In this document: piece by piece, positions 1,597-47,428 of the stretch
Numbering within the stretch: the stretch's first letter is position 1
Layout: the number at the start of each line of letters is the position of its first letter
IMG/VR virus record: IMGVR_UViG_3300001199_000286
Span: 1 to 53,305 of that record
DNA: 53,305 nucleotides
From: a virus
Lineage: Duplodnaviria > Caudoviricetes
Direction: 5' to 3' (one strand)
The notes under the pieces: generated by a model
The model's input: the letters and a program-made list of their open reading frames with translations, nothing else
What the model was told of the DNA's origin: nothing
The model's database searches: none
Made by a program: the position numbers and the translations under genes

Positions 1597-4500
1597 ATGA
1601 ATAATACTTTGTCTTATTTGACTGCCAGAGCAGCACAAGTACCAGAAAATGAAGATGCCAGAATAACCAGACTTGCCGCTACAGGTGGAGATAGATTTGG
1701 CGTTATTTTTAATGACAATGAATCCCAAGAACTAATTTGGACCATCCCTCAAATCCCAACAGCCTATCAAGGAACTGGCACATTATATTTAGACATCCAT
1801 TGTGCAATGGACGAAGCCACTTCTGGGACTGTAGGACTTAATGCTTATTTAGAAGCTGGTGATGTTAATATATCTTCAACTTCTTTTGATTCGGTCAACA
1901 CCAATGGGGATACGGTTGCGGGAACTGCTGGGGATATGTTTGTCATCACAATTACGTTAACGAACAAAGATTTCATGGCGGCAGGAGATACCGTTCGTAT
2001 TAAATTAAATCGAAATTTAACGTCTTATACAGCTACTGGTGATTTATATGTTTTGGGTGGTTTATTATATGAAACCGTCACTTCTGTTACTTTAGGTGGA
2101 GCTTTGGTAGTCACTAGCCTTACATCTAGTGTAAGTACGGGAACAGCCCCTTTCACGGTAAGCTCAACCACTGTTGTCTCTAATTTAAATGTCGATAAAC
2201 TTGATGGTTATGATGCAACTGATTTCGTTCTATCTGGTGATGAAGATACAAATGCTGTTATTTTGGTTCCAACTTCTAGTTCAAGAAACATTATTCAACC
2301 AAGTGCTGCTGGATATATTCCCTTAACAATTAAGGGATATACTTCACAAACAGCAAATTTAACTGAATGGCAAGACAGTAGTGGAACAGCTTTATCCTCT
2401 GTCTCAGCAGCAGGACTTATTAGTGGATTATCTTTTACTAGCACACAAACTACAGGAACCGCTCCTTTGGTTGTAGCATCTACAACCGTGGTAACAAATT
2501 TAAATGCTGATACTGTTGATGGATTAGATGCTACTGCATTTCCTATATTACTTCCAACTTCTAGTTCAAGAAACGTTATTCAACCAAGTGCTGCTGGATA
2601 TATTCCCTTAACAATTAAGGGATATACGTCCCAAACAGCAAATTTAACTGAGTGGCAAGACAGCAATGCCTATAAGCAACTTGCCATTTCAAGTGCTGGT
2701 TTCTTGAGTTTCTACGAAAATTCAGGAACCAACAGAATTGGTCAATTTGTTCCAAATAGTAGCGATGGACAACTAGCTTATGTAATTGAAAATGCTAGCT
2801 ATCCAGGTTTTGCAATTAAAGGAACAACAAGCCAAACTGGAAATCTTCAAGAATGGCAAGATAGCAGTGAAACGGTATTATCATCAGTTTCATCTAGTGG
2901 CATTATTTCAGCCCCCAGATTTATATCAACAACAAGCACAGGAACAGCCCCATTTACTATAAGTTCAACTACTGTTGTAACCAATTTAAATGCAGACACT
3001 GTTGATGGGTTAGAGGCTACTGCCTTTCCTATTTTAGCTCCTGCTTCTAGTGTTAGAAACGTAATTCAACCAACGGCAGCAACTTATATTCCTTTAACAA
3101 TTAAGGGGTATACTTCACAATCAGCAAACTTAACTGAGTGGCAAAACTCTAGTGGAACTGTTGTAACAAGCGTAAATTCTGCTGGTAGTTTACATATACT
3201 TCCAGCAGCTTCAACCAGTGTAGGAACACCTGCGTTCAAAATTGCCGAAACAGGCGTAAGTTCTTTAATCAGATATTATGGCGGTTTATTTGAATTTAAT
3301 GGAGCAACTGCTTATTTTGCTGATGCTGGCGGGCTTAATAGAATACAAATTAGCTCTTCTATAAGCGGAATGAAACTAGACGTAAATCACAAAATTTTCT
3401 TTGGGAACACTTATCTTTCGGAAGACTTCAATATTGCTCTAACAAAAGGCAATCATGGACTTTTTTCTATTACCGATTATGCTTCAAAAAAAGGTGCTAT
3501 TGTTTGTGGATCATTTGGCGGAAGCACACCCGCTCAAACAATTGTCGGAGCAGCGAATACAAATAAATTAATCACTAACGTAGCACTTACATCAAATGTC
3601 GCAACAATTACAACATCGGGTCCACATACGTTCCAAACAGGCCAAAAGGTTGTTATCAGCAGCCTTACAAATAGTGGATTAAATGGCACTTATATAATTA
3701 CCAATATTCCATCCACAACTACTTTTAAATATGATAAAGTAGCAAGCAATATTACTTCTGTTGCCGATAGTGGATATGCAACTCAAACCCAAACTGCTGA
3801 TTTAACACAGTGGAAGAGTGGTGGAAGTGGGGCAAAATTTGTGGCCGCAAGTTCTCAATCGCTCTCTTATGACACGACTTCACTTAATGCTGATGCAGAT
3901 ATGACAATCAGCATGTGGATCAATCCAATAGCAGCCACTACAGGCGACTTATTCTTTGTTGGAACAACAAACGTATTTGATGGATTTAGAGTTTACTATG
4001 ATTCTACTAATAATAGAATTAATGTCAATCGAACTACCACCACAAACTATGCCGTTTCAGCAACATCAAGCATCCCATCTGGATGTTGGACTCACGTTGT
4101 TGTTACCTACATTGCGTCTTCTGGTCTTACTCAAGTCTACATCAATGGAGTTGCTTCTGGAACCTCTGGAAGTAATGTTGTCAGTGTAGGAACCAAAGGA
4201 TACAAACTAGGATATTCGGGTTCTGCTTATTATAGCGGAGGCATGGATGCTGTTGGAATTTGGAATAAAGCCCTAACAACTTCCGATATTACTTCATTAT
4301 TTTCTTTGTGTAAAAGCTATGCGGATTTAAATTCATCTGAAACCACTTCGTTGCACGCATGGTATGACTTTGCAACAAGCGGAACTATTCTGACCGATTC
4401 GAGCGGGAACAACAGAACATTGACCAACACTGGGGTCGTTACTGCTGACGAAGGCATTCCAATCACAACAACTAAAATAAGTTCATCAGGTAGATTAGTT

Positions 4501-19206: not shown

Positions 19207-19273
19207 TGTAGTATCCTCTAAAAATAGGTAATTGCATTCTAACATAATATATAGATTAGAAAGAAAACGAACC

Positions 19274-20578
19274 ATGACAACATTTACAGAATTTTTAGAA
19301 AATCACGAACCATTCGATTCTATGCATGCAGATATTCCTCTACCAAAAGAGGTTTATTTGTTAAGCAAAATTTTTGCTAAACACAACAAAACTTTGTTTG
19401 CTGTTGGTGGAGCTATTCGTGATTTTCTCTACCACAAATATCACGATCCAAAAGGGAAATATAATCCCAAAGATGTGGATCTAGCCACCGATGCTCAACC
19501 ACAAGACATCAATAAAATTCTTACTTCCCAAGAGGCTCAACTAAACGGAATCAAAGTCTTTCCTAAAGGGGAAGCCTTTGGTGTTATTTCAGCCATCGTT
19601 AATGGACAAGAATATGAAATTGCTACTTTTAGAGAAGAATGGTATGACCCAGAAAAGGGAGATGGAAGAAGACCAGACCAAGTTACCTTCTCTACTCCTG
19701 GTAAAGATGCTCAACGTAGAGATTTAACCATGAATGCTCTTTTTTATGATGTAGATAAAAAAGAGATCAGAGACTACAACGTTGACGAAGCGGGACGAGG
19801 CTTAGGCTTACAAGACATTAGAAGCCTTGTAGCTAGACCTGTAGGCAATGCCAAAGAACGTTTTAGAGAAGATAAACTAAGAATCCCCAGATTAATTAGA
19901 TTCTTTTCTAAATACAATCCAGGGGAAATTCTAGACCATTTAGATCAACAAACTATTGCAGCTATTAGGGAATTCAAAGACCTTGCTGGAGTTTCTCCAG
20001 AAAGAATTGCTGCTGAATTTCTGGCAGGGTTGGCCAAATGCCACAATACGATAAACTATCTGAAAAATTATACCGTTTTAGACCTTTATCCTGCAGTGTT
20101 CCCTGGAATGCGAGTAGACACCCAAGATATCGACCGAATTGGAAATATTAAAAATCCCAAGGCTATTTTAGCTTGGATTTTGAAAAGCAATGGGGACTCT
20201 CGTCAAATTAAAAGTCATTTAAATGGCTTGAAATACCCTAGCGATATTTTCGACAGGGTTGAATTTCTTGTCAGATTGTTCAAGTTTGAACCACAAAAAA
20301 TTGCTCTTTATCTCAAACAAAGAGATGTTCCTAAACAATTAAAAGACCCAGCTATGCAATCAATTGCTATGAGTGGGCTACAACAAGATGTTAAGGACTT
20401 TGCCCAAATTGCTGGGATTAGTGACCGTATGAACCATTTCATGGGATACCAATCCAATGTCAATTCTCAAGATTATATGCACTTAAAAGGCAAAGAAATC
20501 TCAGATGCTATTGGCAATGCAGAACATGATGCCTACCAAAAATCTTGGGACCAATTTAATCGTTCCAAGGGACAATAG
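19274..20578 (+). CDS. cca: Class II tRNA nucleotidyltransferase (CCA-adding enzyme)
   Basis: VGGAIRD, DVDLAT, EIATFREE, flexible loop DGRRPD, RRDLTMNAL, EDKLR templating motif, SPERI. Start reassigned to MTTFTEFLE. Confidence 0.9.
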   Translation: MTTFTEFLENHEPFDSMHADIPLPKEVYLLSKIFAKHNKTLFAVGGAIRDFLYHKYHDPKGKYNPKDVDLATDAQPQDINKILTSQEAQLNGIKVFPKGEAFGVISAIVNGQEYEIATFREEWYDPEKGDGRRPDQVTFSTPGKDAQRRDLTMNALFYDVDKKEIRDYNVDEAGRGLGLQDIRSLVARPVGNAKERFREDKLRIPRLIRFFSKYNPGEILDHLDQQTIAAIREFKDLAGVSPERIAAEFLAGLAKCHNTINYLKNYTVLDLYPAVFPGMRVDTQDIDRIGNIKNPKAILAWILKSNGDSRQIKSHLNGLKYPSDIFDRVEFLVRLFKFEPQKIALYLKQRDVPKQLKDPAMQSIAMSGLQQDVKDFAQIAGISDRMNHFMGYQSNVNSQDYMHLKGKEISDAIGNAEHDAYQKSWDQFNRSKGQ

Positions 20579-25260: not shown

Positions 25261-26298
25261 TTATATATAGGAATTTTCAATAACCTCTATTGCTAAATCA
25301 ACTCCATTAACACCATGTTTGTCATTGTGCGTAAAATTGCGTAAAAAAGCATCAATTTTTTCTGAACTTAATTCATCAACATCGCATGAAACCCCTAAAT
25401 TCATTTTATTGATATAATACCCATTGATGGTCTGTTCTGGCTGGTTTGGTTCAGGAATAACAAACATGGGTTTTTGATAATAGGTTCCCTCTCCCAACAA
25501 TTGATTGCCAGCAGAAGCAAATAAGGCCCGACAAGAGGACAAATCTCTAACAAATTCCTCATTTTTCAAATCATGATATTCAAAAGGAAAAATTTGTTTT
25601 TCTTTTGGACAATTATAAACTTTAATTTTTTCCTGTCTGTGGGCTAATGATTTAAGTAGTTTGTCTCCACAAGACACCTTATAATAAACCAACAAATGCC
25701 CATCATTAGTTTTTGGGTAATTGTTGAAATTCTCTCGAATAAAACAATTTGTTAGAATTGTATTTTCATCAATTTTATTGGTTGCTTGATAATAAAAAGT
25801 TGAAACAACAACCTTGGCTGGGTTGGGGACTAAATACTCGGTATATTTCCCCATAGCCCAAGCTTGCAATCGTAATTCCAATGGCAGATCATCAAGTCTA
25901 CAACGACTAAACTTGTGTTGATTGTCAATGCTAATGCATGGCTTATTTAGAACTTTAGCGACTCTAGGAATTACCCCTTCAAAATCAGATATGAACAATC
26001 CAGGCTTATGAATGTCTGCCTGTTTCACAACATAATTATAGGATTGACGATAGCCCTTAATGAACTTGCCAAAATTAATTATGGTTTTGGTAGAAGAAAT
26101 GCGGCCCTTTTTATTTCTTCCAAAGTGCAAACTGACTATTTCATGTAAATGAGGATAGTTTTGTTCTTTATAGAACTTATAAGCTTCTCCCCATGTAAAA
26201 ACATGAACAGTGGTATCTTTCAACCGTTCAATGACTGCATAGGAACGCAAAGCATGGCCTAAGCCTTCGCCTGGAAGTGAATAAAATATAGTTTTCAT
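25261..26298 (-). CDS. GT-B glycosyltransferase, MJ1255/VC2487-like
   Basis: GEGLGHALRS, ISDFE, SIDNQH, AGNQLLGE, P...QPEQ..N. Confidence 0.82.
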   Translation of the reverse strand: MKTIFYSLPGEGLGHALRSYAVIERLKDTTVHVFTWGEAYKFYKEQNYPHLHEIVSLHFGRNKKGRISSTKTIINFGKFIKGYRQSYNYVVKQADIHKPGLFISDFEGVIPRVAKVLNKPCISIDNQHKFSRCRLDDLPLELRLQAWAMGKYTEYLVPNPAKVVVSTFYYQATNKIDENTILTNCFIRENFNNYPKTNDGHLLVYYKVSCGDKLLKSLAHRQEKIKVYNCPKEKQIFPFEYHDLKNEEFVRDLSSCRALFASAGNQLLGEGTYYQKPMFVIPEPNQPEQTINGYYINKMNLGVSCDVDELSSEKIDAFLRNFTHNDKHGVNGVDLAIEVIENSYI

Positions 26299-26356
26299 AT
26301 TAATCAATGGGGTTGGTAGGATTTGAACCTACAATCGCCGTGTACTCAGTTTAACC

Positions 26357-27674
26357 GTTCAACAAAATCTAGGGAAATCTAGGTCTTGTCATTTAAGCTA
26401 TCAACCATCTAACCTTCACCGTTAGACTTTCAAAGGATTGATAACTACTGGCATTGCGGCAATGCTCCTATCCCCTATTCCTGCGAACTCAGGGATTACT
26501 TTTCGTCCAATGTTCAAACTACCATTCACATCAGCATTCATGGCAAAGCCGTTGCTGACATACAAACCACGATACTTACGCTTACCACTAAACTCAGGTT
26601 CAGTGTCACCGTAAACAGGCAATGGATCACGGTCATAAAAACTCGCCTTGCTGGTGTAGGACTCTTCCGTGAAGATTACCTCAATGCCAGCAATGTTTGC
26701 TTTGTACTTGATCTTTTCCAACAACAAATATGTCGGAATTGAACAAAATGCCTGATTAGTTTTCTTGCCCAAATTGATATTCTGCTTCCATCCGTCGTTC
26801 TTGCCGATGATGATTTTGCCAATGTTATTCTTCAAACATAAATCAACGATCAACTTGCTCGTATGATGGAAATAGTTTTCAATTCTCCAATAACGCTTAC
26901 GCAATCGTGTCTTACAAGGACGCTTGTTGTACCATTGGTTTATGCTCTTGAGGATGCGACCATTGACCAATATAGGACGGTTTTGGTCGTAAGTTATCGC
27001 AGCTAAAGTATTCAAACCAATGTCTATTGTGCAAACTTTGTCCTTGTCAAACTTTACTTTCTTCTTCTCTTCTTTCGTTTCATACTGGACTTCAATTACA
27101 AAGCCAAAGGTCTTGGGAGTGATGACCACTTGTTTATAGTCAGCCCTGAACCTCACCGAGAAACAATTATTCGTAGCGGTCAGATTAGGCAAGGTTTCGT
27201 GGTATTGCCCACCTTTGATTGTCTCGTTGTAGAAAATGACTTGTGCTAGTTTTTCCTTGTAGTTTGGTGCTTTGGGGCAACGCACAAACTTGCTATGGTC
27301 TTTGCCATAGGCGGTCAGTGCCTTGCGGTAATTACTCCAATCGGTTAGGCACTTGCGGATCGTTTGTTTTGCGGTTTTGGTGTTGTGGAGTTGCTTGAAG
27401 CAGTCAAGGTTTTTGGTTTCGTTGGTAAGGAGAGTAATGTCAGGAAGTCGTTGTTTGGTGAACCACGCTTTACGCATGAGGAAATTGCAGCGATTGTATA
27501 ATTCTCTGCTTGTGGAGCAGAGTCTTACAAGTTCTGGGTTTCCTCTTGTGTAGTGTCGTTCAACCAATAGCATACCTTATATAAGGGTATGCCCTTTCAT
27601 TTTTGAAATAAATCTTTGAATTTTGTCAAAATAATTATCTAGGTTCTCCTAGATTTACTTAGATTTTATGACAA
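26357..27674 (-). mobile_element. Non-autonomous IS607-like element carrying tnpB only
   Basis: Subterminal inverted motifs AAAATCTAAGTAAATCTAGG (27648-27667) and AAAATCTAGGGAAATCTAGG (26364-26383), 18/20, each 7 nt from an RG dinucleotide; 10-nt-spaced CTAG-type repeats; no tnpA. Confidence 0.7.
26422..27573 (-). CDS. tnpB: RNA-guided endonuclease TnpB
   Basis: LYN, RuvC-I IDIGLN, IIIGKN, EESYTSK, RuvC-III NADVNGSLNI. Confidence 0.93.
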   Translation of the reverse strand: MLLVERHYTRGNPELVRLCSTSRELYNRCNFLMRKAWFTKQRLPDITLLTNETKNLDCFKQLHNTKTAKQTIRKCLTDWSNYRKALTAYGKDHSKFVRCPKAPNYKEKLAQVIFYNETIKGGQYHETLPNLTATNNCFSVRFRADYKQVVITPKTFGFVIEVQYETKEEKKKVKFDKDKVCTIDIGLNTLAAITYDQNRPILVNGRILKSINQWYNKRPCKTRLRKRYWRIENYFHHTSKLIVDLCLKNNIGKIIIGKNDGWKQNINLGKKTNQAFCSIPTYLLLEKIKYKANIAGIEVIFTEESYTSKASFYDRDPLPVYGDTEPEFSGKRKYRGLYVSNGFAMNADVNGSLNIGRKVIPEFAGIGDRSIAAMPVVINPLKV

Positions 27675-27728
27675 CTGTTGTGAACCCTTTGTCCGGTCGC
27701 CATGCCAGTTAGCGTACAACCCTACAAC

Positions 27729-27980
27729 TTATTCTTTATTCAGAAAATTATAAACAGTATCTGATACTGATTCTCTAATAAAAGTATCAAAATCATCCAA
27801 CATATCTTTAGCTTGTTTTAATCGCTTATTTTTAACATAAGTATAAAACCTAATTAGATCGCTAAAATCAGACAACATAAAAGATGAATTAACCTTTTTT
27901 CCCAGTCTAATTCTATCTAATTGAGAGTTATACAATTTAAGCTTATTTTTAGCAATCGTTTGAATTTTTTCTGTTCTCAT
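27729..27980 (-). CDS. Hypothetical protein (paralog of next gene)
   Basis: AKNKLKL...FSDLIRFYT...KQAK..L..F. Confidence 0.65.
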   Translation of the reverse strand: MRTEKIQTIAKNKLKLYNSQLDRIRLGKKVNSSFMLSDFSDLIRFYTYVKNKRLKQAKDMLDDFDTFIRESVSDTVYNFLNKE

Positions 27981-28264
27981 ATTTGAACCTCTGTCATCCC
28001 TTCAAAACAAGCCAAAATATCTTTATTCAAATCAACAATAATGTCTTTATTGTCTCTTGAATAAAAACCATTAAGCACGCTTTTTGCTTTTTTAGTTTGG
28101 CCAGTAGCAACCAATGTGTAAAACCTAACTAAGTCCGAAAGATTATAGGCGAATATATCTGACTTGGCTTTTACTAATATGGATTTCCCTTTTTTGGCCT
28201 GATTAATGCCAGTGTTGATTAATTTAAGCTCTTTTTTAGCTTCGGAAATTGCTTTTTTATTCAT
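27977..28264 (-). CDS. Hypothetical protein (paralog of previous gene)
   Basis: AKKELKL...LSDLVRFYT...KKAK..L..F. Confidence 0.65.
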   Translation of the reverse strand: MNKKAISEAKKELKLINTGINQAKKGKSILVKAKSDIFAYNLSDLVRFYTLVATGQTKKAKSVLNGFYSRDNKDIIVDLNKDILACFEGMTEVQI

Positions 28265-28602
28265 GGAGCATTCACTTCATCTAAAACTTCCATAGGCTCT
28301 TCCCCAGTGATTTCAACAGTATTTTGGTCGGCAGGAATCCAACCTTCTTCTGTCAACACAGCATGAACGCCTGTTAAAAGAAAATAATCACGAAACCAAT
28401 CTTCATCAGGAGCATGTTCAAATAAACCAAACTCCATCAAAACATCAATTAGTCCCATACAACGATCAAATTTCAATTGATCAATTGTTCTGTTTTCTTG
28501 ATAAAATGGACTATCTTTCATCTCATCGGCAAAATTACTTAATATGTTTTTCGACCGATAAATTAAATCAATCGCCAAATCAGCTTTTTCTTGATCATTC
28601 AT
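28261..28602 (-). CDS. Hypothetical acidic protein
   Basis: AAGGA RBS, coupled to next gene. Confidence 0.65.
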   Translation of the reverse strand: MNDQEKADLAIDLIYRSKNILSNFADEMKDSPFYQENRTIDQLKFDRCMGLIDVLMEFGLFEHAPDEDWFRDYFLLTGVHAVLTEEGWIPADQNTVEITGEEPMEVLDEVNAP

Positions 28603-28612
28603 ATCAAATTCC

Positions 28613-29872
28613 TTATTCTACAACTTCTTCTTCGGCTTCATCTTCTTCCATAGACTCTAACATTTCATCAATCTCATCAGCAACAGAATCTTCTTCATCG
28701 TCACCAACACTAGTTTCTGTAATGCTATCATCGTTCTCAAGCTTCAATGCCGCTTGAAATGGTTCAAGATAATCAATGATTTCTTGAGATGAAGTTGCAT
28801 CCAACAAAGCTGGGCATTTTAAGAAAACATCCAATGGCATATTGTTTTCGTCCAAATTAGCTCTGAATTTAACCTCTTCTCCATTGGAATAAGCTGGATC
28901 GACTGTAAATGAACCCTTACCAGAAATCTTGACTCTCTTGCAGTCCAACATTAAACTCAAAAGTCCAGAAAGTGGATTAATCCCATGTTCAAACAAAAGT
29001 TTAATACCATCTGTTTCAACAAATGGGCGATAACTTCTATTCTTCTTGTTTTGAATTCTAACATTGACACCAAGAATTCTCTTCTTCTTGGCTGTGATTT
29101 TTTGTTCAATCTTCTTGAGAGTTTGTGTTCTCAAAATCAAAGAAGCATAGAAAGTAAGTGATTGACCACCACCACCCTTGACTTCTGGGTTGCCATACAT
29201 AACCCCAATTTGACTTCTGGTTTGGTTCATAAATACCACTGTACAGTTTGTATTTACCTTCTCCATCAAACCATTGAGCTTACGAAGTTCTTTAGAACAA
29301 ACCTTGGCTCTTTCTCCTGGTTGTTCCTTGCCGCCCACAATAGCCTTAAATTGAGCCTTATTCCAACCTTCTGGCAATTCAACTTCTCTTAATTCACGCT
29401 CTGTAGGAGATACGGAAAGAGAATCATAGACAATAAGAACGGGAATGTTCGGCTTTTTGGTGCGAACAAATTGAATAATAGAAAATATCTTAGCAAAACA
29501 TGCTTCCAAAGAAACCGTTTTATAACGGTTGATTTTCTTTGGATCAGCATGGCTTGCACGAACAATAAACTCTTTGTTGGCCGCATTCTCGGTGTCGATT
29601 AATATCGAAATACCACCCATGCGTTGAATACCAAACAAAAGATTGCTTCCAAGTAAAGATTTACTGGATGCAGACGGCCCATAAAGCTCAGTAATTCTAG
29701 CTCCTGGGATTCCACCACCAATAAACTTACCGCTGCAAATGTAATTAATCGACAATGAGCCAGTATCAATAAAATATTTTACTGTTTCCTGGTCATCTAA
29801 AACTTCACCACCAGTTTCCTTGGCGAGTTCACGCATAAAAGCTTCGTCATTGTCTATTTTCTTTTTAGCCAT
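28613..29872 (-). CDS. uvsX: RecA/UvsX-like recombinase
   Basis: IDTGS, GGIPGARITELYGPSASSKS, IDTE, VYDS, NQTR, YGNPE..GGG..L.FYAS. Confidence 0.92.
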   Translation of the reverse strand: MAKKKIDNDEAFMRELAKETGGEVLDDQETVKYFIDTGSLSINYICSGKFIGGGIPGARITELYGPSASSKSLLGSNLLFGIQRMGGISILIDTENAANKEFIVRASHADPKKINRYKTVSLEACFAKIFSIIQFVRTKKPNIPVLIVYDSLSVSPTERELREVELPEGWNKAQFKAIVGGKEQPGERAKVCSKELRKLNGLMEKVNTNCTVVFMNQTRSQIGVMYGNPEVKGGGGQSLTFYASLILRTQTLKKIEQKITAKKKRILGVNVRIQNKKNRSYRPFVETDGIKLLFEHGINPLSGLLSLMLDCKRVKISGKGSFTVDPAYSNGEEVKFRANLDENNMPLDVFLKCPALLDATSSQEIIDYLEPFQAALKLENDDSITETSVGDDEEDSVADEIDEMLESMEEDEAEEEVVE

Positions 29873-46879: not shown

Positions 46880-47347
46880 TTAAATTTCTTTAAACCACTC
46901 TAATGGTACTGTCTTCACAGATTGGTAGTTGCAACTATTTGTACTTTTCACCATATTTCTAGGTTGTTTTAATAATGTGTCAATCATAGTTGAATCAATA
47001 GTAGCGGCTCTAGTTTTAGACCCTTTGAAGCCGTTGATTTCAACTGCGTATTCAAACCCTTTATCTGTGTAGTTTCTAATAGTTCTTTCATTGATGTATA
47101 TCCCGCTTCTCAAACAGCTAGAGTCCCATCCTTCTTTAAACTTATCCGAAGTCCATCCTGAGTGATTTGGAAACCCTTTGCGTCGGGCTTCTACACATAT
47201 TTCTTTCCCATTTCTTTCAATAATGCCATCTGTATCACCATTATCTTGGTCTTTTTGAAGCTTGATAACTTTCGCATTGGTTTTGGAGGCATAATTTTCA
47301 ATTAATCCCCGCTCAGCTATTTTTTCTTCAATTGGTTGGAACAACAT
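46880..47347 (-). CDS. Putative PD-(D/E)xK nuclease
   Basis: E...DTDGII......CVEARRK; 6 bp upstream of the methyltransferase. Confidence 0.45.
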   Translation of the reverse strand: MLFQPIEEKIAERGLIENYASKTNAKVIKLQKDQDNGDTDGIIERNGKEICVEARRKGFPNHSGWTSDKFKEGWDSSCLRSGIYINERTIRNYTDKGFEYAVEINGFKGSKTRAATIDSTMIDTLLKQPRNMVKSTNSCNYQSVKTVPLEWFKEI

Positions 47348-47391
47348 AAATGCCCTTTCAAATAGGTCTAATCAACCCAATTAATTTATAT

Positions 47392-47428
47392 AAAAAAAGA
47401 CCCTATATCAATATTGATATAGGGTCTT
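47392..47428 (-). terminator. Perfect 32-bp palindrome / terminator
   Basis: AAGACCCTATATCAAT|ATTGATATAGGGTCTT (47397-47428) followed by T-run on minus strand. Confidence 0.8.

Follow-up and report, generated by a model that had tools for sequence, protein, structure and literature searches.

In the present study, a viral DNA record of 53,305 bp (IMG/VR virus IMGVR_UViG_3300001199_000286; the whole stretch is hereafter called the window) was analysed, and we found on its minus strand a 1330-nt element with a single tnpB gene, which lies between the two pieces of a degenerate tRNA-like gene. The element is likely to be a TnpB/omegaRNA element of IS200/IS605 type which lacks TnpA and is non-autonomous, from a family carried mostly on large-phage contigs, and to have been inserted immediately 3' of an AGGGT motif in the degenerate tRNA-like gene of a jumbo-phage fragment. 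The original prediction, that a tnpB-only element splits a tRNA-derived gene, is supported by our results, and the length of the element, its TAM and its place within the gene are revised here.

The phage fragment and the element

By its genes the window is phage DNA, apparently a fragment of a jumbo phage (CheckV completeness, 11%). Searches with Pfam and PHROG identified a DnaB-like helicase, a DNA polymerase, SSB, a RecA-like protein and helicases, and furthermore a tail-fibre-like protein, glycosyltransferases and a CCA-adding enzyme (tRNA nucleotidyltransferase). The genes for the RecA/UvsX-like protein, SSB and a branch-migration helicase lie near the element on the same phage, and the tnpB element is single-copy within the 53-kb record. 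No blastn match was obtained when positions 25300-28700 were compared with GenBank phages. Among viral contigs, the neighbouring glycosyltransferase had 0 relatives and the neighbouring RecA-like protein had one (L060, 55%), which shows no synteny and has no tRNA. A promoter scan was uninformative, with 4 matches against 5.2 expected. The parts of the element and its borders are as follows:

27683-26354, minus strand: whole element, 1330 nt, with ends taken from comparison with 79 other insertion sites of the family
27684..27688, minus strand: predicted TAM AGGGT, with which the left flank ends
27574..27683, minus strand: left end and 5' untranslated region of the element, conserved across relatives
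26422..27573, minus strand: tnpB, intact frame of 383 aa (Pfam, PHROG, family alignment)
26354..26500, minus strand: putative omegaRNA scaffold with an approximate 5' limit; it runs over the 3' end of tnpB and closes with GAACGGT (26360-26354)
26334..26353, minus strand: predicted guide-encoding flank, starting at the first base after the family-wide right end, in the variable central part of the tRNA-like gene

As had been predicted, a D-arm half and a T-arm half flank the element, and tnpB is the sole gene between these two pieces. Its protein matched Cas12f1-like_TNB (37.7 bits, cut-off 26.3) and OrfB_IS605 (32.6 bits, cut-off 30.5) in Pfam, as well as the transposase PHROG 506 (E 6e-25), and its relatives in viral contigs have 62-74% identity. 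The window protein was aligned with 15 relatives by MAFFT, and three acidic residues were kept in all full-length members, namely D in IDIGLN, E in EESYTS and D in NADVNG; we take these to be the RuvC catalytic D, E, D triad. The ORF of one relative (L007) is truncated and stops before the NADVNG block. The family has no CxxC...CxxC zinc ribbon, and no cysteines occur at residues ~300-360 in any of the 16 aligned members. Among solved structures, a PDB sequence search matched Cas12f weakly (E ~6e-4). Given the missing zinc ribbon and this weak match, nuclease activity of the predicted TnpB is not assured.

The 5' untranslated region of the element contains a conserved AACAGTTG palindrome together with AAATCTA-type repeats, a hairpin with a T run (27654-27637) and, immediately upstream of the tnpB ATG, a TATATAAGGT box. 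At the other end, the last ~180 nt were aligned in 64 copies, and RNAalifold gave 18 consensus pairs, 9 of them with compensatory changes; an extra covarying stem just upstream of GAACGGT was seen by eye in the alignment. From these pairs it is evident that the 3' end of tnpB is covered by a structured, covarying RNA, which would fit an omegaRNA scaffold, and the compensatory changes point to purifying selection on the putative omegaRNA.

Family, insertion borders and predicted TAM

The family was retrieved with an omegaRNA hairpin pattern, taken from the 3' regions of relatives, where this hairpin shows compensatory changes. It matched 18 stretches in viral contigs, 96 in metagenomes and 1 in the 185,579 species genomes searched. 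The pattern is carried, for instance, by a contig of an Omnitrophota MAG (L157). In total, 120 loci were collected, with 79 distinct right flanks, 37 two-ended sites and 34 full copies with distinct left flanks. The closest copy (L149) is also 1330 nt long and is 90.5% identical to the window element over 1326 of 1330 nt (bases 5-1330), in flanks that are unrelated, and the element of L125 is 85% identical. Related elements were found in addition in two public runs (X3 and X4), where the likeness to the window ends at 26353.

The borders are sharply defined by this comparison. At the right end, 78 of the 79 distinct right flanks follow GAACGGT and 1 follows GAACGAT, after which the flanks are unrelated; the first base after the end varies (T 33, A 29, G 10, C 7). 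At the left end, GGGT stands at the same place in all 34 distinct left flanks that have a plausible geometry. The preceding base is A (23), G (9) or T (2), and the sequence further upstream looks random. The regex used for the left flanks required GGG plus T or A, and divergent left ends are outside this count. By these borders, the element of 1318 bp that had been predicted is lengthened to 1330 nt. The TAM proposed earlier, CACAAC(AG), corresponds to 27682-27675 and falls inside the conserved left end, and the motif at the border is instead RGGGT (AGGGT in the window).

Since GGT closes the TAM as well as the element and so stands at both borders, the position of the cut is defined to within 3 nt. 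The GGGT was assigned to the flank side because of three tRNA cases among the relatives. In L085, joining the left flank, up to and including GGGT, to the sequence after GAACGGT gave a tRNA-Ile(TAT) at ARAGORN default settings, 77 nt long, with a 7/7 acceptor stem and an encoded ACCA. The insertion lies between tRNA positions 31 and 32, the tRNA is restored only with GGGT kept as flank, and the junction has no target duplication beyond the common GGT. In L115, tRNA positions 1-4 are taken up by the element-terminal CGGT, and GGGT would be expected there from the 3' acceptor strand. In L140, the acceptor stem of a tRNA-like RNA begins with the element-terminal GGT, which is paired there, and the 3' strand again predicts GGGT. 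From flank conservation and these three tRNA reconstructions, we infer that the family TAM is RGGGT and that the uninterrupted site would read ...RGGGT and then directly the right flank.

The earlier proposal that the guide would come from the sequence just past the right end is supported, with the flanks diverging after the family-wide GAACGGT. Its start had been placed at 26356, which is the right place within the 3-nt GGT ambiguity, although the comparative start is 26353; either version would match the uninterrupted allele. Guides of known TnpBs are ~16-20 nt long, and this length was assumed here. When up to 3 mismatches were allowed, the predicted guide flank had no second match in the window.

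Of the 37 two-ended sites, 1 (L085) restores a tRNA that ARAGORN calls at default, and because of this, tRNA targeting is not a family rule. The tRNA angle is a minor one: among the 79 distinct right flanks, 4 touch a tRNA or tRNA-like gene (those of the window, L085, L115 and L140). The family is nevertheless often met in tRNA arrays, with tRNA genes nearby in 18 of the 120 loci, nearly all on the tnpB strand. Two other loci (L003 and L004) are 5'-truncated copies between direct repeats of 10 nt and 7 nt, respectively, and these repeats are left unaccounted for by our best explanation. L004 lies in a primase-like reading frame, which continues in frame once the element is taken out together with one copy of the repeat.

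All 34 full copies are ~1.3 kb long, and therefore none carries tnpA. In addition, a search for Y1 TnpA (PF01797) gave nothing in the window or in 4 of the 5 records of relatives, among which is a complete genome of 478,840 bp; in the controls for this search, matches were obtained in 6 of 14 genomes. The single PF01797 match among the relatives' records was set aside as belonging to an unrelated IS.

Search for the uninterrupted allele

It had been suggested that empty alleles be looked for in related phages. Neither IMG/VR nor the JGI metagenome contigs nor the contigs of four public DNA runs yielded an empty allele; these four were the runs listed as containing the stretch, and no RNA run was among them. 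Patterns made from the 22-nt D arm and from the gapped guide plus T loop gave 0 matches in viral contigs, a 22-nt right-flank pattern gave 0 in metagenome contigs, and the contigs of the four public runs contained no joint skipping the element. A 23-nt pattern of T arm and acceptor strand gave a single match in viral contigs, in another phage (L041), to an uninterrupted but divergent tRNA-like RNA. The predicted target, that is, the uninterrupted tRNA-like allele of the window, is a reconstruction.

These results bear on the reading that the element is a stranded relic, in which TnpB no longer cuts DNA or is kept for another phage function and the locus has passed down vertically without homing. 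We regard this as unlikely. It would agree with the absence of TnpA from the window and most relatives, with the missing zinc ribbon, with an empty allele found nowhere in the searched data and with one copy in a 53-kb fragment. However, the 383-aa frame is intact, its D-E-D motifs are kept across the family and the putative omegaRNA carries compensatory changes. Moreover, a same-length copy of 90.5% identity at an unrelated site, together with 79 distinct sites with exact borders, argues for recent mobility.

The split tRNA-like gene

The interrupted gene and its neighbours are arranged as follows:

27980-27729, minus strand: upstream ORF; its stop codon is followed by 5 nt to the tRNA-like 5' part
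27684..27723, minus strand: 5' part of the tRNA-like gene, with acceptor strand, T8 and A9, D arm, A26 and then 13 nt ending in the predicted TAM (read from the sequence and from RNAfold of the joined flanks)
27723-27717, minus strand: 5' acceptor strand, 7 nt
27714-27698, minus strand: D arm with a 4-bp stem and a 9-nt loop with GG
26308..26332, minus strand: 3' part of the tRNA-like gene, with T arm, acceptor strand and discriminator; a partial Rfam tRNA match covers it
26332-26316, minus strand: T arm with a perfect 5-bp stem and the loop TTCAAAT
26315-26309, minus strand: 3' acceptor strand, 7 nt
26308, minus strand: discriminator A
26307-25261, minus strand: glycosyltransferase ORF with a TTG start, 1 nt past the end of the tRNA-like 3' part

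The acceptor strands of the two pieces still pair, as had been predicted, at 6 of 7 positions, the mismatch being A1/C72. Relative to the element, the acceptor partner is 40 nt ahead of the left end and the T stem begins 21 nt past the right end (16 nt in L085). This T-arm-like site is the single one in the window when both strands are scanned, and no CCA is encoded at the end of the 3' part. When the flanks were joined at the comparative junction, the product was 86 nt, which is tRNA-sized, and RNAfold formed the acceptor, D and T arms. It drew the centre as a 30-nt irregular hairpin with a 7-nt loop lacking U33, and no 5-bp anticodon stem with a 7-nt loop and U33 was formed. Thus, the claim that the element sits in the anticodon arm could not be upheld, as the joined flanks have no recognisable anticodon arm by RNAfold or ARAGORN.

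ARAGORN at default called 0 tRNAs over the window, and on the joined flanks it called none at default and none at -ps95. Rfam likewise gave no tRNA over the window at the gathering score, and lax thresholds gave a partial match of 15.9 bits against the gathering score of 29 (RF00005). Furthermore, a scan of 1,800 artificial junctions gave an ARAGORN default tRNA in 64, and the comparative right border was used in 0 of those 64. We call this a tRNA-like gene and not a tRNA because the real junction is not called even at -ps95 and there is no anticodon arm. The split gene is a degenerate tRNA-like gene, and it was probably already a non-canonical tRNA-like RNA, and not a working tRNA, before the insertion.

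It may then be asked whether the flanks are a gene at all, or whether the D-arm-like and T-arm-like pieces are there by chance or are decayed and mutually unrelated. The failure of ARAGORN and Rfam to call a tRNA would fit the latter, and so would the shuffling results: a loose split-tRNA arrangement (T arm, at least 6 of 7 acceptor pairs, T8 and D arm within 3 kb) occurred somewhere in 67 of 200 shuffled windows. What is above chance is that both pieces abut element ends which were set independently from relatives, and rough arithmetic from the shuffle rates of this loose test puts the joint chance at ~1e-6. These abutting pieces also sum to 86 nt with the three arms in RNAfold, the gene fills the gap between two same-strand ORFs exactly, and the phage encodes a CCA-adding enzyme. 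In addition, the uninterrupted tRNA-like RNA of L041 lies inside a 30-tRNA array and has the same 23-nt T arm and acceptor strand as the window; at its 5' start, 8 of 9 bases match the window, and those positions are outside the search pattern. This likeness adds support to the split gene being a real, if odd, RNA gene, and that the flanks are no gene is very unlikely. A region upstream in L041 that resembles the left end of the element was also considered and was not significant (E 0.36).

That the element is instead an intron-like insert, IStron-like or spliced by the tRNA machinery, which rebuilds a working tRNA in RNA can hardly be credited: ARAGORN in intron mode at -ps90 does draw a cloverleaf with a 1327-nt 'intron', and the primase-like frame of L004 stays in frame without the element and one repeat copy, but the calls of this mode carry no weight because, at the same threshold, the window received 8 and each of 10 shuffled windows received 2-8. 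Moreover, Rfam detected neither a group I nor a group II intron, in the window or in the region, at the gathering score or at E up to 10. One version of this reading, in which the last 12 nt of the element serve as the 3' strand of an anticodon stem and as its loop (GTT), takes as an anticodon arm a conserved element end that is also present in L125 and L149 at non-tRNA sites, and its stem of 4 pairs plus a G/A mismatch is followed by a 21-nt unstructured 'variable' stretch. This ARAGORN reading as 'tRNA-Asn' was rejected, as it borrows the conserved element end.

Proposed mechanism

The preferred explanation, a TnpA-less TnpB/omegaRNA element inserted 3' of AGGGT, would work by the TnpB mechanism reportedly described by Karvelis in 2021, Altae-Tran in 2021 and Meers in 2023, on which the following steps are based. 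Transcription would read through the right end and give an omegaRNA with ~16-20 nt of flank, from 26353 downward, as the guide. The TnpB-omegaRNA complex would then cut DNA in which AGGGT is followed by a match to the guide, which is the uninterrupted tRNA-like allele. Recombinational repair off the occupied copy would copy the element in, possibly in a co-infecting relative. The first arrival at a new site would need a Y1 transposase in trans, because the window encodes none. Homing against co-infecting relatives, as the original prediction had it, may be the outcome of these steps. The same prediction had tRNA processing set the 3' end of the transcript, and tRNA processing or the T arm may indeed set the 3' end of the guide or the omegaRNA; the spacings of 21 nt in the window and 16 nt in L085 are hints of this.

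A broader reading is possible, though we find it rather doubtful. According to this, the phage-restricted TnpB family, which lacks both TnpA and the zinc ribbon, would act as an RNA-guided homing nuclease between co-infecting jumbo phages. The right end ACGGT would mimic the TAM RGGGT, so that insertion at the 5' GGGT of tRNA genes would leave a usable downstream tRNA (L115 and L140), and the T-arm hairpin, 16-21 nt past the scaffold in tRNA insertions, could define the 3' end of the guide.

Comparison with known systems

We take the closest known elements to be the TnpB-only members of IS200/IS605 (IS1341-type), for which ISDra2 TnpB/omegaRNA is the studied model. The element described here is like them in that it has a single tnpB, a structured RNA over the 3' end of this gene and the right end, and a guide that would be read from the right flank. 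The short motif at the left border also resembles the last bases of the element (here RGGGT and ACGGT), and there is no target duplication (the L085 junction), with L003 and L004 as exceptions. In contrast to them, the present family has no Cys zinc ribbon in the TNB region, its inferred TAM is G-rich (RGGGT), it is found almost only on phage and metagenome contigs, and no TnpA partner is present in the 34 full copies. The comparison with ISDra2 draws on the general literature and on a part of PMC8612924.

IStrons, in which a group I intron is combined with an IS605 or IS607 element with tnpB, are likewise tnpB-bearing inserts able to sit inside genes. They differ from the present case, in which no intron ribozyme was detected by Rfam and the same ends are also found at intergenic sites.

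From phage biology, T4 SegB is described in PMC13565253 as a free-standing protein homing endonuclease that targets the tRNA gene region of related phages. Both are selfish nuclease genes among phage tRNA genes, and the expected effect in co-infection is the same, namely that the own locus is inherited preferentially (PMC13565253). Whereas SegB is a protein-guided GIY-YIG enzyme by that account (PMC13565253), in the present case an RNA guide and a TAM are predicted and the gene lies inside its target gene. The same 2026 review calls the homing of transposons into co-infecting phages theoretically possible (PMC13565253).

In the literature, covered mainly by listings and abstracts, no report of a TnpB element inside a phage tRNA gene was found. 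Overall, the element is of a known kind and a neat but rather ordinary example of it, and its place is unusual but not unique.

Conclusion

In the present study, a concrete candidate pair of TnpB and omegaRNA was obtained, with a scaffold end at 26354, a predicted TAM RGGGT and a guide of 16-20 nt, and it comes from a family that has been inserted at 79 or more sites on large-phage contigs and is without its own transposase. If the nuclease is active, it would be a compact enzyme with an unusual, G-rich TAM and no zinc ribbon. It would then also provide a natural case of the 'non-restorative homing' of transposons in phages, an idea that is still theoretical according to the 2026 review (PMC13565253).

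Results

Removal of the element from L085, a metagenome contig, restored a 77-nt tRNA-Ile(TAT), a second split gene of this kind besides the tRNA-like gene of the window. The split tRNA sits within a phage tRNA array, and 16 nt lie between the right end of the element and the start of the T stem.
L085, about 2028-3338, tnpB orientation: element

In two further contigs of the family, the element end itself serves in the tRNA or tRNA-like sequence. The 5' GGGT of a tRNA-Lys called by ARAGORN in the right flank of L115, and that of a D-arm-less, Tyr-like tRNA-like RNA in the right flank of L140, were replaced by the last bases of the element, (C)GGT, and a nearly intact gene therefore lies downstream of the element. 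On the left side both contigs stop at the element, so neither left flank is present.

An uninterrupted tRNA-like RNA carrying the T arm and acceptor of the window gene was found in L041, where it is flanked by two tRNA-Met genes within a 30-tRNA array. This RNA received no call by ARAGORN, and its Rfam tmRNA match was weak (18.5 bits versus 47). Further tRNA-related features lie in the window.
L041, 4054-4133, minus strand: tRNA-like RNA, 80 nt, with encoded ACCA
Window 19232-20578, plus strand: phage tRNA nucleotidyltransferase-like ORF (PHROG 2244, E 7e-38)
Window 47321-47397, minus strand: intron-less tRNA-Gln(TTG)-like sequence (ARAGORN at -ps90), a call under the default threshold and with a high background in shuffles

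Within the left end of the window element, a terminator-like structure was placed between the tRNA-like 5' part and tnpB.
Window 27654-27637, minus strand: terminator-like hairpin and T run

The copies in two viral contigs, L003 and L004, were 5'-truncated and without the normal left end. The former is bordered by 10-nt direct repeats that extend across a ribosome site as well as a stop codon; the latter has 7-nt direct repeats and is located in a primase/Toprim-like frame, which is open after removal of the element and one repeat.

Discussion

The truncated copies and their direct repeats are left unexplained by the TAM model. The terminator-like hairpin could insulate tnpB from upstream transcription. 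The nucleotidyltransferase-like ORF is consistent with a phage bearing tRNAs without encoded CCA.

Among 185,579 species genomes, the omegaRNA pattern matched only L157, a 3,486-bp contig from a Candidatus Omnitrophota MAG, which may be a hint of the host or else a phage contig binned into that MAG.

In L149, a 90.5%-identical copy lies inside a tRNA array, and the 3' end of an apparent HNH-endonuclease ORF, read by eye, adjoins the element in the left flank. If this reading is true, the two would be a pair of adjacent selfish nucleases.
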